NCBI RefSeq assembly: GCF_044647545.1
Contig: NZ_CP172818.1
DNA from: Escherichia coli
GTDB lineage: Bacteria; Pseudomonadota; Gammaproteobacteria; Enterobacterales; Enterobacteriaceae
DNA: 64,000 nt
Reading direction: 5' to 3' (one strand)
Shown: piece by piece, positions 19,428 to 55,541 of the stretch
Numbering within the stretch: position 1 is the stretch's first letter
Layout: the number at the start of each line of letters is the position of its first letter
Notes under the pieces: model-generated
Told to the model about the DNA's origin: nothing
Database searches by the model: none
The model's input: the letters and a program-made list of their open reading frames with translations, nothing else
Position numbers and translations under genes: made by a program

Positions 19428-19440
19428 CCTACATGTTCAT

Positions 19441-19799
19441 GCCGGATGCGGCGTGAACGCCTTATCCGGCCTACGAATGGCGCAAGAATCTGTAGGCCTG
19501 ATAAGCGTAGCGCATCAGGCATTTGTCACCATTGCCGGATGCGGCGTGAACGCCTTATCCGGCCTACGAATGGCGCAAGAATCTGTAGGCCTGATAAGCG
19601 TAGCGCATCAGGCATTTGCCACCACTGCCGGATGCGGCGTGGACGCCTTATCCGGCCTACGAGTGGCGCGAGAATCTGTAGGCCTGATAAGCGTAGCGCA
19701 TCAGGCATTTGTCACCATTGCCGGATGCGGCGTGAACGCCTTATCCGGCCTACGAGTGGCGCGAGAATTGTAGGCCTGATAAGCGTAGCGCATCAGGCA
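19441..19799. repeat. BIME/REP array, about 3.9 tandem units of 93 bp, each with two REP palindromes
   Basis: Units begin at 19441, 19534, 19627 and 19720 with near-identical sequence GCCGGATGCGGCGTGAACGCCTTATCCGGCCTAC...GTAGGCCTGATAAGCGTAGCGCATCAGGC. Confidence 0.85.
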
Positions 19800-46860: not shown

Positions 46861-47694
46861 TCAGCGTAAATGCACGCCGCTTCGCCTTCCCGCTACCAGA
46901 ATAGCCTGCGATTCAACCCCTTCTTCGATCTGTTTTGCCACCCGTTGCAGCGCCGGAAGATGCTTTTCCGCTGCCTGTTCGATGGTCATTGCGCTCGCCA
47001 TATACACCAGATTCAGACAGCCAATCACCCGTTGTTCACTGCGCAGCGGTACGGCGATAGAGGCGATCTTCTCCTCCTGATCCCAGCCGCGGTAGTTCTG
47101 TCCGTACCCCTCTTTGCGCGCGCGCGCCAGAATGGCTTCCAGCTTTAACGGTTCTCGTGCCAGTTGATAGTCATCACCGGGGCGGGAGGCTAACATCTCG
47201 ATTAATTCCTTGCGTTCTTGTTCCGGGCAAAAGGCCAGCCAGGTCAGGCCCGAGGCGGTTTTCAGAAGCGGTAACCGTCGCCCGACCATTGCCCGGTGAA
47301 AAGATAAGCGGCTGAAACGATGGGTGGTTTCGCGTACCACCATTGCATCAACATCCAGCGTGGACACATCTGTCGGCCATACCACTTCGCGCAACAGATC
47401 GCCCAGCAGTGGGGCCGCCAGTGCAGAAATCCACTGTTCGTCACGAAATCCTTCGCTTAATTGCCGCACTTTGATGGTCAGACGAAAACTGTCATCGGAG
47501 GTACTGCGCCGGACATATCCCTCTTCCAGTAACGTCTCCAGCAGTCGCCGCACAGTGGTGCGATGCAGGCCGCTGAGTTCCGCCAGCAGCCCGACGCTGG
47601 CACCGCCGTCAAGTTTATTTAACATATTTAATAACATTAGACCGCGGGTTAAGCCGCGCACGGTTTTGTATTCCGTCTGCTCATTGTTCTGCAT
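46861..47694 (-). CDS. mhpR: IclR-family activator of the mhp operon
   Basis: ORF track 46861..47706; ATG at 47694 gives 277 aa. Confidence 0.85.
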   Translation of the reverse strand: MQNNEQTEYKTVRGLTRGLMLLNMLNKLDGGASVGLLAELSGLHRTTVRRLLETLLEEGYVRRSTSDDSFRLTIKVRQLSEGFRDEQWISALAAPLLGDLLREVVWPTDVSTLDVDAMVVRETTHRFSRLSFHRAMVGRRLPLLKTASGLTWLAFCPEQERKELIEMLASRPGDDYQLAREPLKLEAILARARKEGYGQNYRGWDQEEKIASIAVPLRSEQRVIGCLNLVYMASAMTIEQAAEKHLPALQRVAKQIEEGVESQAILVAGRRSGVHLR

Positions 47695-47726
47695 ATTAAT
47701 TGACATTTATATAGTTAAAACAACGT

Positions 47727-47743
47727 TGTGCACCTGGTGCACA
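47727..47743. promoter_or_regulatory. Perfect 17-bp palindrome TGTGCACCTGGTGCACA in the mhpR/mhpA divergent region; candidate MhpR operator
   Basis: Read directly; lies between the divergent mhpR and mhpA starts. Confidence 0.5.
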
Positions 47744-47884
47744 TTCGGGCATGTTTTGATTGTAGCCGAAAACACCCTTCCTATACTGAGCGCACAATAA
47801 AAAATCATTTACATGCTTTTAACAAAATAAGTTGCGCTGTACTGTGCGCGCAACGGCATTTTGTCCGAGTCGTGAGGTACTGAA

Positions 47885-49549
47885 ATGGCAATACAACACC
47901 CTGACATCCAGCCTGCTGTTAACCATAGCGTTCAGGTGGCGATCGCTGGTGCCGGTCCGGTCGGGCTGATGATGGCGAACTATCTCGGCCAGATGGGCAT
48001 TGACGTGCTGGTGGTGGAGAAACTCGATAAGTTGATCGACTACCCGCGTGCGATTGGTATTGATGACGAGGCGCTGCGCACCATGCAGTCGGTTGGCCTG
48101 GTCGATAATGTTCTGCCGCACACTACGCCGTGGCACGCGATGCGTTTTCTCACCCCAAAAGGTCGCTGTTTTGCTGATATTCAGCCAATGACCGATGAAT
48201 TTGGCTGGCCGCGCCGTAACGCCTTTATTCAGCCTCAGGTCGATGCGGTAATGCTGGAAGGATTGTCGCGTTTTCCGAATGTGCGCTGCCTGTTTTCCCG
48301 CGAGCTGGAGGCCTTCAGCCAGCAAGATGACGAAGTGACCGTGCACCTGAAAACGGCAGAAGGGCAGCGGGAAACGGTCAAAGCCCAGTGGCTGGTGGCC
48401 TGTGATGGTGGGGCAAGTTTTGTCCGTCGCACCCTGAATGTGCCGTTTGAAGGTAAAACTGCGCCAAATCAGTGGATTGTGGTAGATATCGCCAACGATC
48501 CGTTAAGTACGCCGCATATCTATTTGTGTTGTGATCCGGTGCGCCCGTATGTTTCTGCCGCGCTGCCTCATGCGGTACGTCGCTTTGAATTTATGGTGAT
48601 GCCGGGAGAAACCGAAGAACAGCTGCGTGAGCCGCAAAATATGCGCAAGCTGTTAAGCAAAGTGCTGCCTAATCCGGACAATGTTGAATTGATTCGCCAG
48701 CGTGTCTACACCCACAACGCGCGACTGGCGCAACGTTTTCGTATTGATCGCGTACTGCTGGCGGGCGATGCCGCGCACATCATGCCGGTGTGGCAGGGGC
48801 AGGGCTATAACAGTGGTATGCGCGACGCCTTTAACCTCGCATGGAAACTGGCGTTGGTTATCCAGGGGAAAGCCCGCGATGCGCTGCTCGATACCTATCA
48901 ACAAGAACGTCGCGATCACGCCAAAGCGATGATTGACCTGTCCGTGACGGCGGGCAACGTGCTGGCTCCGCCGAAACGCTGGCAGGGTACGTTACGTGAC
49001 GGCGTTTCCTGGCTGCTGAATTATCTGCCGCCAGTAAAACGCTACTTCCTCGAAATGCGCTTCAAGCCGATGCCGCAATATTACGGCGGTGCGCTGGTGC
49101 GTGAGGGCGAAGCGAAGCACTCTCCGGTCGGCAAGATGTTTATTCAGCCGAAAGTCACGCTGGAAAACGGCGACGTGACGCTGCTCGATAACGCGATCGG
49201 CGCGAACTTCGCGGTAATTGGCTGGGGATGCAATCCACTGTGGGGGATGAGCGACGAGCAAATCCAGCAGTGGCGCGCGTTGGGCACACGCTTCATTCAG
49301 GTGGTGCCGGAAGTGCAAATTCATACCGCACAGGATAACCACGACGGCGTACTACGCGTGGGGGATACGCAAGGTCGCCTGCGTAGCTGGTTCGCGCAAC
49401 ACAATGCTTCGCTGGTGGTGATGCGCCCGGATCGCTTTGTTGCCGCCACCGCCATTCCGCAAACCCTGGGCAAGACCCTGAATAAACTGGCGTCGGTGAT
49501 GACGCTGACCCGCCCTGATGCCGACGTTTCTGTCGAAAAGGTAGCCTGA
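47885..49549 (+). CDS. mhpA: 3-(3-hydroxyphenyl)propionate hydroxylase (FAD monooxygenase)
   Basis: ORF track 47885..49549, 554 aa, GAGPVG FAD motif. Confidence 0.9.
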
Positions 49550-49550
49550 T

Positions 49551-50495
49551 ATGCACGCTTATCTTCACTGTCTTTCCCACTCGCCGCTGGTGGGGTATGT
49601 CGACCCGGCACAAGAGGTACTCGATGAGGTCAATGGCGTGATTGCCAGCGCCCGCGAGCGTATTGCGGCTTTCTCCCCTGAACTGGTGGTGCTGTTTGCG
49701 CCAGATCACTACAACGGCTTTTTCTATGACGTGATGCCACCGTTCTGTTTAGGCGTTGGAGCGACGGCAATTGGTGATTTCGGCAGTGCGGCAGGTGAGC
49801 TGCCCGTGCCTGTGGAGCTGGCGGAGGCCTGTGCGCATGCCGTCATGAAGAGCGGGATCGATCTTGCCGTTTCTTACTGTATGCAGGTGGACCACGGGTT
49901 CGCCCAGCCGCTGGAGTTCCTGCTCGGTGGGCTGGATAAGGTGCCAGTTCTGCCTATGTTCATCAACGGTGTCGCCACGCCGCTGCCCGGTTTCCAGCGT
50001 ACCCGCATGTTGGGGGAAGCCATTGGACGTTTCACCAGCACTCTCAATAAACGCGTGCTGTTCCTTGGGTCCGGTGGGCTTTCCCATCAGCCGCCGGTGC
50101 CAGAACTGGCGAAAGCCGATGCCCATATGCGCGACCGTCTATTGGGGAGCGGGAAAGATTTACCCGCCAGTGAGCGCGAATTGCGTCAGCAACGGGTGAT
50201 TAGCGCCGCTGAGAAGTTTGTTGAGGATCAGAGAACGCTGCATCCGCTCAACCCGATTTGGGATAACCAGTTCATGACTTTGCTGGAGCAGGGACGCATA
50301 CAGGAACTGGATGCCTTCAGTAACGAAGAGCTTTCCGCCATTGCCGGAAAGTCGACACATGAAATCAAAACCTGGGTCGCCGCTTTTGCCGCTATTTCTG
50401 CGTTTGGCAACTGGCGTAGCGAAGGGCGTTATTACCGCCCAATCCCGGAGTGGATTGCCGGATTTGGCTCGTTAAGCGCCAGAACAGAGAACTGA
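49551..50495 (+). CDS. mhpB: 2,3-dihydroxyphenylpropionate 1,2-dioxygenase (extradiol)
   Basis: ORF track 49551..50495, 314 aa. Confidence 0.9.
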
Positions 50496-50512: not shown

Positions 50513-51379
50513 ATGAGTTATCAGCCACAAACCGAAGCCGCCACCAGCCGTTTTCTGAATGTAGAAGAAGCGGGTAAAACGCTGCGCATCCATTTTAATG
50601 ACTGCGGACAAGGCGACGAAACTGTTGTCCTGCTGCATGGTTCCGGCCCGGGTGCTACTGGCTGGGCGAACTTCAGCCGCAATATCGATCCGCTGGTAGA
50701 GGCGGGCTATCGGGTGATCCTGCTGGATTGTCCGGGTTGGGGCAAGAGCGATTCGATCGTTAATAGTGGTTCGCGATCGGATCTTAATGCACGAATCCTG
50801 AAAAGCGTGGTGGATCAACTGGATATCGCCAAAATCCACCTGCTGGGCAACTCGATGGGTGGCCATAGTTCTGTGGCGTTCACCCTTAACTGGCCGGAGC
50901 GCGTCGGCAAACTGGTGCTGATGGGCGGCGGTACGGGCGGCATGAGTTTGTTTACGCCGATGCCAACCGAAGGTATTAAGCGACTGAATCAGCTTTATCG
51001 TCAGCCGACTATCGAAAACCTGAAGCTGATGATGGATATCTTCGTTTTTGATACCAGCGATTTGACCGACGCCCTGTTTGAAGCGCGTCTGAATAATATG
51101 CTGTCGCGCCGCGATCACCTGGAAAACTTCGTTAAGAGCCTGGAAGCCAATCCGAAACAGTTCCCGGATTTTGGCCCACGGCTGGCGGAAATCAAAGCGC
51201 AAACCCTGATTGTCTGGGGGCGCAACGACCGCTTTGTGCCGATGGATGCGGGTCTGCGTCTGCTGTCCGGCATTGCCGGTTCTGAACTGCATATCTTCCG
51301 CGACTGTGGTCACTGGGCGCAGTGGGAACATGCCGACGCTTTCAATCAACTGGTGCTGAATTTCCTCGCACGCCCTTAA
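50513..51379 (+). CDS. mhpC: Alpha/beta hydrolase acting on the ring-cleavage product
   Basis: ORF track 50450..51379; ATG at 50513 after GGAG gives 288 aa; GNSMGG nucleophile motif. Confidence 0.9.
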
Positions 51380-53141
<1,762 letters not shown>

Positions 53142-53145
<4 letters not shown>

Positions 53146-54155
53146 ACGATAAAAAACTTTATATCTCGGACGTCACGTTGCGTGATGGTATGCACGCCAT
53201 TCGTCATCAGTATTCATTGGAAAACGTTCGCCAGGTTGCCAAAGCACTGGACGATGCCCGCGTGGATTCGATTGAAGTGGCCCACGGCGACGGTTTGCAA
53301 GGTTCCAGCTTTAACTATGGTTTCGGCGCACATAGCGACCTTGAATGGATTGAAGCGGCGGCGGATGTGGTGAAGCACGCCAAAATCGCGACGTTGTTGC
53401 TGCCTGGAATCGGCACTATTCACGATCTGAAAAATGCCTGGCAGGCTGGCGCGCGGGTGGTTCGTGTGGCTACGCACTGTACCGAAGCTGATGTTTCCGC
53501 CCAGCATATTCAGTATGCCCGCGAGCTCGGAATGGACACCGTTGGCTTTCTGATGATGAGCCATATGACCACGCCGGAGAATCTCGCAAAGCAGGCAAAG
53601 CTGATGGAAGGCTACGGTGCGACCTGTATTTATGTGGTGGATTCTGGCGGTGCGATGAACATGAGCGATATCCGTGACCGTTTCCGCGCCCTGAAAGCAG
53701 TGCTGAAACCAGAAACGCAAACCGGCATACACGCTCACCATAACCTGAGTCTTGGCGTGGCGAACTCTATCGCGGCGGTGGAAGAGGGCTGCGACCGAAT
53801 CGATGCCAGTCTCGCGGGAATGGGCGCGGGCGCAGGTAACGCGCCGCTGGAAGTGTTTATTGCCGCCGCGGATAAACTGGGTTGGCAGCATGGGACCGAT
53901 CTCTATGCGTTAATGGATGCCGCTGACGACCTGGTGCGTCCGTTGCAGGATCGTCCGGTACGAGTCGATCGCGAAACGCTGGCGCTGGGATACGCCGGTG
54001 TTTACTCCAGCTTCCTGCGTCACTGTGAAACGGCGGCGGCGCGTTATGGCTTAAGCGCGGTGGATATTCTCGTTGAGTTGGGCAAACGCCGGATGGTTGG
54101 CGGTCAGGAGGATATGATCGTCGATGTGGCGCTGGATCTGCGCAACAACAAATAA
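53142..54155 (+). CDS. mhpE: 4-hydroxy-2-oxovalerate aldolase
   Basis: ORF track 53142..54155, 337 aa. Confidence 0.9.
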
Positions 54156-54329
54156 TGATGACTGCCGAGAACGTGCATTTTGTATGCCCATCCCAGCACG
54201 ACTGCCGGATGTAAACGCCTTGTTCGGCCTACATTTTCTTCGCCTGTAGGCAGTCATTAAATGGTTCTGATTACGCGGCTGGCAATGTATCAGCCGCGAT
54301 TCACCTGCACTCGCAACGAGGTTCATCTT

Positions 54330-55541
54330 ATGTCGACTCGTATCCCTTCATCATCTTCATCCCGCCTGATGCTGACCATCGGGCTTTGTTTTTTGGTCGC
54401 TCTGATGGAAGGACTGGATCTTCAGGCGACTGGCATTGCGGCGGGTGGCATCGCCCAGGCTTTCGCACTCGATAAAATGCAAATGGGCTGGATATTCAGC
54501 GCCGGAATACTCGGTTTGCTACCCGGCGCGCTGGTTGGCGGAATGCTGGCGGACCGTTATGGTCGTAAGCGTATTTTAATTAGCTCAGTTGCGCTGTTTG
54601 GTTTGTTCTCACTGGCAACGGCGATTGCCTGGGATTTCCCCTCACTGGTCTTTGCGCGGCTGATGACCGGTGTCGGGCTGGGGGCGGCGTTGCCGAATCT
54701 TATCGCCCTGACGTCTGAAGCCGCAGGGCCACGTTTTCGTGGGACGGCAGTGAGCCTGATGTATTGCGGTGTTCCCATTGGCGCGGCGCTGGCGGCGACG
54801 CTGGGTTTCGCGGGGGCAAACTTAGCATGGCAAATGGTGTTTTGGGTCGGTGGTGTGGTGCCGTTGATTCTGGTGCCGCTATTAATGCGCTGGCTGCCGG
54901 AGTCGGCGGTGTTCGCTGGCGAAAAACAGGCTGCGCCACCACTGCGTGCGTTATTTGCGCCAGAAACGGCTACCGCGACGCTGCTGCTGTGGTTGTGTTA
55001 TTTCTTCACTCTGCTGGTGGTCTACATGTTGATCAACTGGCTACCGCTGCTTTTGGTGGAGCAAGGATTGCAGCCATCGCAGGCGGCAGGGGTGATGTTT
55101 GCACTGCAAATGGGTGCGGCAAGCGGGACGTTAATGTTGGGCGCATTGATGGATAAGCTGCGTCCAGTAACCATGTCGCTACTGATTTATAGCGGCATGT
55201 TAGCTTCGCTGCTGGCGCTGGGAACGGTGTCGTCATTTAACGGTATGTTGCTGGCGGGATTCGTCGCGGGGTTGTTTGCGACAGGTGGGCAAAGCGTTTT
55301 GTATGCCCTGGCACCGTTGTTTTACAGTTCGCAGATCCGCGCAACAGGTGTGGGAACAGCCGTGGCGGTAGGGCGTCTGGGGGCTATGAGCGGTCCGTTA
55401 CTGGCCGGGAAAATGCTGGCATTAGGCACTGGCACGGTTGGCGTAATGGCCGCTTCTGCGCCGGGTATTCTTGTTGCCGGCCTGGCAGTGTTTATTTTGA
55501 TGAGCCGGAGATCACGAATGCAGCCGTGTGCAGATGCCTGA
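54330..55541 (+). CDS. mhpT: MFS transporter for 3-hydroxyphenylpropionate
   Basis: ORF track 54261..55541; ATG at 54330 gives 403 aa. Confidence 0.85.
   Translation: MSTRIPSSSSSRLMLTIGLCFLVALMEGLDLQATGIAAGGIAQAFALDKMQMGWIFSAGILGLLPGALVGGMLADRYGRKRILISSVALFGLFSLATAIAWDFPSLVFARLMTGVGLGAALPNLIALTSEAAGPRFRGTAVSLMYCGVPIGAALAATLGFAGANLAWQMVFWVGGVVPLILVPLLMRWLPESAVFAGEKQAAPPLRALFAPETATATLLLWLCYFFTLLVVYMLINWLPLLLVEQGLQPSQAAGVMFALQMGAASGTLMLGALMDKLRPVTMSLLIYSGMLASLLALGTVSSFNGMLLAGFVAGLFATGGQSVLYALAPLFYSSQIRATGVGTAVAVGRLGAMSGPLLAGKMLALGTGTVGVMAASAPGILVAGLAVFILMSRRSRMQPCADA

Follow-up and report, generated by a model that had tools for sequence, protein, structure and literature searches.

A perfect 17-bp palindrome in the mhpR–mhpA gap of an Escherichia coli genome very probably is the known MhpR operator in its commoner, fully symmetric allele

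The DNA analysed here, a stretch of 64,000 nucleotides from Escherichia coli that we call the window, contains the mhp genes together with their regulator. The regulator gene mhpR (46861..47694, minus strand) is intact; its open reading frame of 834 nt has no internal stop and codes for an IclR-family protein of 277 amino acids in which Pfam recognizes the domains HTH_IclR (residues 15-63) and IclR_C (residues 89-256), and the RefSeq annotation likewise reads mhpR. The protein has 273 of its 277 residues in common with MhpR of K-12. The four exchanges are Q56L, P65T, D160E and M274V, and of these Q56L falls in the HTH_IclR domain, where the predicted recognition helix ends. On the plus strand follows mhpA (47885..49549), with which the activated operon begins; it encodes a 3-(3-hydroxyphenyl)propionate hydroxylase of 554 amino acids (Pfam FAD_binding_3, E = 8e-85), 549 of them identical to K-12 MhpA. 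According to the list of open reading frames, mhpB (49551-50495), mhpC (50513-51379), mhpD (51389-52198), mhpF (52195-53145), mhpE (53142-54155) and mhpT (54330-55541) come next on the same strand and are all intact.

A preliminary description of this DNA, made from the letters alone, had named mhpR and mhpA and had called all mhp genes intact in contrast to the prp block. The gene names agree with Pfam and with the RefSeq annotation of an identical region, and mhpR, A, B, C, D, F, E and T have the lengths known from K-12 with proper starts and stops. A codon-by-codon comparison with K-12 showed no internal stops in any of these genes, and 98-99% amino-acid identity for mhpR to mhpE. The contrast with the prp genes was found as described, since these are fragmented in the window: between 28348 and 35455 the prp operon is split into many short reading frames (fragments of prpB, C, D and E), and codB looks truncated. 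Compared with E. coli FDAARGOS_497, the closest complete genome, in which prp is intact, the prp region shows about 96% identity and many gaps. A further difference concerns the interval between mhpE and mhpT, where K-12 has about 400 bp of extra repeat-element DNA (L001 8882-9460) that is missing from 54155-54330 of the window. Repeats related to this K-12 element stand in tandem at 19440-19783 of the window.

The gap between mhpR and mhpA is 190 bp long, exactly as in K-12, and the perfect 17-bp palindrome that had been described at 47727-47743 between the two divergent genes was recovered by direct reading and by a script. It has the sequence TGTGCACCTGGTGCACA, with two arms of 8 bp and a single central T, so that bases 10-17, read on the opposite strand, repeat bases 1-8. 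The symmetry ends there, the next bases outward (T47726 and T47744) being unpaired; the local sequence reads AACG TTGTGCACCTGGTGCACATTCGGG. From the palindrome it is 32 bp to the ATG of mhpR (47694, minus strand) and 141 bp to the ATG of mhpA (47885). Within it the hexamer GTGCAC occurs twice, at 47728-47733 and 47737-47742, separated by a 3-bp centre and flanked by T and A. Since GTGCAC is self-complementary, the site can be read as an inverted repeat and equally as a direct repeat of 9-bp period. The hexamer is also the recognition sequence of ApaLI, and we consider the two ApaLI sites within the palindrome incidental.

A palindrome of this kind is by itself no more than is to be expected by chance in 64 kb. 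Perfect palindromes with 8-bp arms and a centre of zero or one base were found four times in the window, compared with 2.7 +/- 1.6 in dinucleotide-preserving shuffles, and the chance of one falling into this particular gap is about 0.008 (2.7 x 190/64000). The core GTGCAC-N3-GTGCAC, with its 12 specified bases, occurs a single time in the window. The scan for further MhpR sites in the window gave none, the two matches with two mismatches being at chance level.

For E. coli the MhpR site is given in Table 1 of PMC8222616 as GGTGCACCTGGTGCACA and is attributed there to Torres et al. 2003 (Torres, Porras, Garcia, Diaz 2003, J Biol Chem 278:27575). In K-12 MG1655 this sequence is found at 368,458-368,474, which aligns with 47727-47743, and 16 of the 17 bases are the same, the single mismatch being the outermost base. 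Locus, position and neighbouring promoter hexamers are shared between the K-12 operator of Pa and the window; at three more bases the gap differs from that of K-12. The earlier proposal that the palindrome is the likely binding site of MhpR is supported by this comparison, and the published operator, as the table quotes it, does not turn out to be a different sequence. The attribute perfect, which the preliminary description had used, is correct for the allele of this strain, whereas the published K-12 site carries a G at position 1 and is imperfect. As to the regulator, a passage in PMC8753852 describes MhpR as a 3HPP-dependent activator of Pa that is essential for CRP binding, and a fusion to the mhpR promoter was constitutive toward 3HPP and phenylpropionate (PMC11237407). 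We assign a probability of roughly 0.93 to the reading that MhpR, the activator of the IclR family whose gene lies alongside, uses the palindrome as its operator. The identity of the operator rests on the second-hand citation of footprinting and on the cross-species footprint made here; the binding evidence concerns the K-12 allele, next to which the T allele of the window is placed by its sequence.

With MhpR as query and one genome per species we collected 80 mhpR loci comprising 295,344 bases. They belong to Escherichia, Citrobacter, Kluyvera, Edaphovirga, Shimwellia, Pluralibacter, Pseudomonas and Azotobacter, and further to Azomonas, Marinobacterium, Nitrincola, Zobellella, Oceanospirillum, Xanthobacter and Vibrio, and at most of them mhpA is divergent from mhpR. 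Upstream of mhpR the core GTGCAC-N3-GTGCAC is present in 78 of the 80 species, in 68 exactly and in 10 with one mismatch; the exact upstream core usually lies 22-45 bp from the start of mhpR (68 loci). Altogether 73 exact cores were counted in the 295,344 bases, where about 0.02 are expected. It is therefore the conservation of the core across species, not the palindrome alone, that gives the site its significance. Only at two Vibrio loci of the 80 is the core absent within 3.8 kb (V. cincinnatiensis and V. furnissii, L028 and L036). The MhpR homologues found there are 69-74% identical and have no adjoining mhpA; they may regulate another target or recognise another site. In three Marinobacterium species and one Pseudomonas the core is also found just 3' of mhpR (L047, 2356; L052, 2301; L064, 2323; L086, 2343). 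In L047, L052 and L064 this downstream core is a second site, and in L086, where the upstream copy has one mismatch, it is the sole exact one. The downstream cores suggest that at these loci the genes are arranged differently and the regulated ones follow mhpR.

In a logo of the 78 upstream sites the hexamer positions are identical in 75-78 of the sites. The outermost bases are less uniform (T at position 1 in 57 sites, A at position 17 in 53), and the three central bases vary freely (TTA in 25 sites, CTG in 12, CTA in 7, and others). Only 21 of the 78 sites are perfect 8+1+8 palindromes. Positions 1 and 17 are complementary in 41 of 75 cases, compared with 38.7 expected from the composition of the two columns (p = 0.24), thus showing no covariation; positions 8 and 10 show some symmetry (p = 0.001, species relatedness being ignored in this value). 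As far as the alignment tells, this conservation profile is that of a site whose bases would be read one by one by a symmetric protein dimer, and not that of an RNA helix. Two blocks outside the palindrome are conserved as well: TAAAACAA at 47717..47724 in the interval between operator and mhpR start (logo positions -10 to -3; 67-75 of 78 species at most positions) and the T run TTTT at 47754..47757 between the operator and the -35 hexamer of Pa (logo positions +28 to +31; T28 in 78 of 78). Both stand at fixed distances in enteric and non-enteric species, and the region from one block to the other, palindrome included, measures about 42 bp. Given these conserved flanking blocks, the functional element may exceed 17 bp.

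The site can also be compared with the operators of related regulators. For group 1 of the IclR family a TGT-11-ACA motif of the form TGTYCRYW3RYGRACA has been described, and the MhpR sites of Burkholderia xenovorans, TGTGCAT-N3-ATGCACA, fall into this subgroup (PMC8222616). The window site shares with the subgroup the odd palindrome of 17 bp, the location in a divergent gap between regulator and operon, and the control of aromatic catabolism. The ends of the motif are present (TGT GCACCTGGTGC ACA), and the GGT end of the K-12 site departs from the pattern. In the inner part the window has GCAC-CTG-GTGC where the consensus has YCRY-W3-RYGR. Only the middle base of the CTG centre is W, whereas the cross-species consensus centre TTA fits W3; where the subgroup consensus has Y and R at positions 4 and 14, the window has G and C. 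Positions 7 and 11, which are C and G in the enteric and Pseudomonas sites, are T and A in Burkholderia. On sequence comparison the resemblance of the window site to the TGT-11-ACA subgroup is thus partial.

Promoter elements were sought in a gap-free stack of 73 species anchored on the palindrome. At stack positions 34-39, and thus at a fixed distance from the operator, the hexamer TTGT.G is found in at least 80% of the 73 species, in the enteric as well as in the non-enteric groups. It corresponds in the window to TTGTAG at 47760..47765 (plus strand), the putative -35 hexamer of Pa, which begins 16 bp past the operator. As -10 hexamer we propose TATACT at 47782..47787 (plus strand), 16 bp from TTGTAG and present in 22 enteric species at stack positions 56-61. 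TTGTAG, with three of six matches to TTGACA, would be a weak -35, and TATACT, with five of six, a good -10. A generic sigma-70 scan of 47600-47950 returned no promoter, the Pa hexamers being below the threshold of the scan. That a generic scan misses them fits an activator-dependent promoter, just as the fixed spacing to TTGT.G fits an activator site adjoining a promoter. From the hexamers we infer a Pa start near 47793/47794, which would put the palindrome centre, 47735, at -58/-59. The 2003 study by Torres and colleagues is reported to place the MhpR site at -58 and the CRP site at -95.5, and the geometry of the sequence would agree with the first of these values.

A consensus scan of the gap for CRP sites gave weak candidates only, with centres at 47850.5, 47768.5 and 47697.5. 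The third-best of them in consensus score is the 22-mer TTCTGCATATTAATTGACATTT at 47687..47708, which has six of the ten core positions. Its centre, 47697.5, would be at -95.5 from a start at 47793, in agreement with the value reported for CRP, and the 22-mer is a candidate for the CRP site that is said to need MhpR for its occupancy.

Published data on transcription in the gap concern both directions. The mhpR promoter is CRP-activated, with a site annotated at -38 to -59 of mhpRp2 (PMC12132413). In the supplements of PMC12132413 and PMC5772556 the mhpR CRP site is not listed, and the mhpR start is absent from the table of transcription start sites of Kim et al. 2012 (PMC3415461 supplement). 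The latter table gives a weak plus-strand start at 47867, 18 nt before the ATG of mhpA, under non-inducing conditions. This start is distinct from the MhpR-dependent start proposed near 47793. Ahead of the mhpR ATG at 47694 the minus strand (47692-47726) has no sequence resembling a Shine-Dalgarno site, and an in-frame ATG lies 12 nt upstream of this ATG at 47706.

Within E. coli, position 47727 is polymorphic. The T of the window makes the palindrome perfect and the G of K-12 makes it imperfect. Exact 40-mers centred on the site were found for the T allele in about 2823 records and for the K-12 G allele in about 1495, out of about 4900 with the locus; the corresponding exact 64-mer counts are 2442 and 1434. 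In terms of complete E. coli genomes the perfect allele has a share of about 58% and the K-12 allele of about 30%. Over 391 bp around the palindrome the window and FDAARGOS_497 are 100% identical, and 4896 of the 5426 complete E. coli genomes contain this stretch, invariably annotated as mhpR and mhpA. Other alleles are TGTGCACCTAGTGCACA in O157:H7 (A at position 10, window 47736) and TGTGCACTTGGTGCACA in APEC O2-211 (T at position 8, window 47734). Among the E. coli alleles no change within the GTGCAC hexamers was seen, the changes being confined to outer or central positions. T at 47727 is the majority base across species, and close outgroups (among them Escherichia sp. E1V33, Citrobacter and Kluyvera) have it too. 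This makes it probable that the perfect palindrome is the ancestral state and that the G of K-12 is derived. Moreover, T at this position restores the family-typical TGT...ACA ends, and judged by these ends the T allele should be bound no less well than the K-12 site with which the experiments were done. The element is thus the MhpR operator already described, here in its commoner, fully symmetric allele.

The operator also varies in length. From 47726 to 47743 it consists of tandem copies of a 9-bp unit, TGGTGCACC, which vary in number within E. coli, and the direct repeat extends further on the K-12-type G allele (TGGTGCACC TGGTGCACA). Three units are present in 15 complete E. coli genomes on at least two flanking haplotypes (loci L006, L007 and L088 are involved in the copy variation) and four units in one complete genome. 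All of these expansions (16 genomes, about 0.3%) are on the K-12-type G allele, and with every added unit the distance between Pa and the mhpR side of the gap grows by 9 bp. One could imagine that the operator is a slippage-prone tandem unit that tunes regulation by its copy number, or, in a related form, that palindrome and flanking blocks make up a larger element of about 42 bp. If this were true, an added unit would move the weak CRP site 9 bp farther from Pa and would give a second, overlapping MhpR site, so that extra units could weaken or rewire the control by 3HPP and CRP; the 42-bp element could be a site that a tetramer wraps or a structure in the mhpR leader and could underlie the post-transcriptional rise of mhpR in acid. 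We regard these proposals as unlikely.

A second possibility is that the palindrome acts in RNA, instead of or besides its role as operator, namely as a hairpin followed by a U-rich stretch in the mhpR sense, which would make it an element of the terminator or attenuator type in a leader of mhpR. A consensus scan of the minus strand indeed reports a terminator-like arrangement of a 7-bp stem, a 3-nt loop and then ACGTTGTTTT, and the T-rich block behind the hairpin (TTG.TTTa, minus strand) is conserved in about 78 species. At pH 4.4 mhpR mRNA was up 15-fold with unchanged promoter activity, and post-transcriptional control was concluded (PMC11237407). However, the fold of the 66-nt RNA is ordinary (-10.9 kcal/mol, z = -0.78; 38 of 200 shuffles are equally good), the run of U is not continuous and is displaced by 3 nt, and the bases of the stem are invariant and do not covary, as the outermost pair described above exemplifies. 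Taken together, the short stem, the interrupted and offset tract and the z-value do not amount to an intrinsic terminator. Furthermore, the palindrome would enter a transcript only if the mhpR promoter were suitably placed, and a role as DNA operator is already documented in the table of PMC8222616. We therefore judge an action in RNA to be very improbable.

Still less probable is that the palindrome is a cAMP-CRP site, by virtue of its TGTG....CACA ends, which would serve the CRP-dependent promoter of mhpR and not MhpR. Its ends, TGTGc and gCACA, resemble the half-sites TGTGA and TCACA, a 22-mer centred at 47735.5 is among the CRP-like matches in the gap, and the CRP activation of mhpR with the site annotated for mhpRp2 would be in line with such a role. 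In the required register with a 6-bp spacer (TGTGA-N6-TCACA), however, only five of the ten core positions agree, the likeness being obtained only with a spacer of 7 bp, and the conserved GTGCAC departs from the CRP consensus at important positions. The motif is conserved beside mhpR equally well in Pseudomonas, Azotobacter and Marinobacterium. Since in the non-enteric genera it always adjoins mhpR, it tracks MhpR and not the enteric CRP, and the published assignment, as tabulated in PMC8222616, is to MhpR. That the palindrome is a functionless chance sequence, as the chance-level number of such palindromes in the window might suggest, is excluded by the conservation data (the core keeps its place relative to mhpR in 78 of the 80 species, thousands-fold over expectation), and the footprint of Torres 2003, as cited in PMC8222616, covers the site.

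With the palindrome as MhpR operator, activation of the mhp genes could proceed as follows. Judging from the family, a dimer of MhpR would occupy the two GTGCAC hexamers, the centres of which are 9 bp apart, with one winged helix-turn-helix domain on each. Located at about -58 of Pa and stimulated by 3-hydroxyphenylpropionate, MhpR would offset the poor -35 and recruit RNA polymerase, and it would additionally help or stabilise cAMP-CRP on the weak upstream site. The outcome would be transcription of mhpABCDFE only with substrate and without glucose, that is, substrate induction combined with catabolite control. Promoters that depend jointly on a specific activator and CRP are known in E. coli from MelR/CRP at melAB and MalT/CRP at malK. 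The mhp promoter would be analogous in that a promoter-adjacent specific activator is needed for cAMP-CRP at a weak upstream site, as a passage of PMC8753852 describes for MhpR. It would differ from these two examples in having a specific activator of the IclR type, situated between CRP and RNA polymerase if one goes by the reported positions and the geometry of the sequence. In this scheme the identity of the site, the role of MhpR as 3HPP-dependent activator and the requirement of MhpR for CRP binding are published and quoted second-hand from the sources named above. The present analysis contributes the position and sequence of the site, the intact cognate regulator, the deep conservation of the hexamers and the fixed spacing to the conserved -35. 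The -58/-95.5 geometry, the contact of one dimer per palindrome and the mode of contact with RNA polymerase are the inferred parts of the scheme.

To a large extent this work locates the known activator site of MhpR on the sequence of this strain; it is mainly a correct annotation with little beyond. It does show an intact mhp pathway with an intact control region in the neighbourhood of prp genes that have decayed. It also puts the K-12 operator, on which all experiments were done, into perspective as a minority and probably derived allele, the natural majority allele being the perfect palindrome, which is closer to the cross-species consensus. The truly constrained bases are those of the two GTGCAC hexamers and not the whole 17-mer, and operators with three or four hexamers occur in rare natural strains. 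These points on allele, hexamers and copy number may serve researchers working on Pa and builders of biosensors for 3HPP or phenylpropionate.
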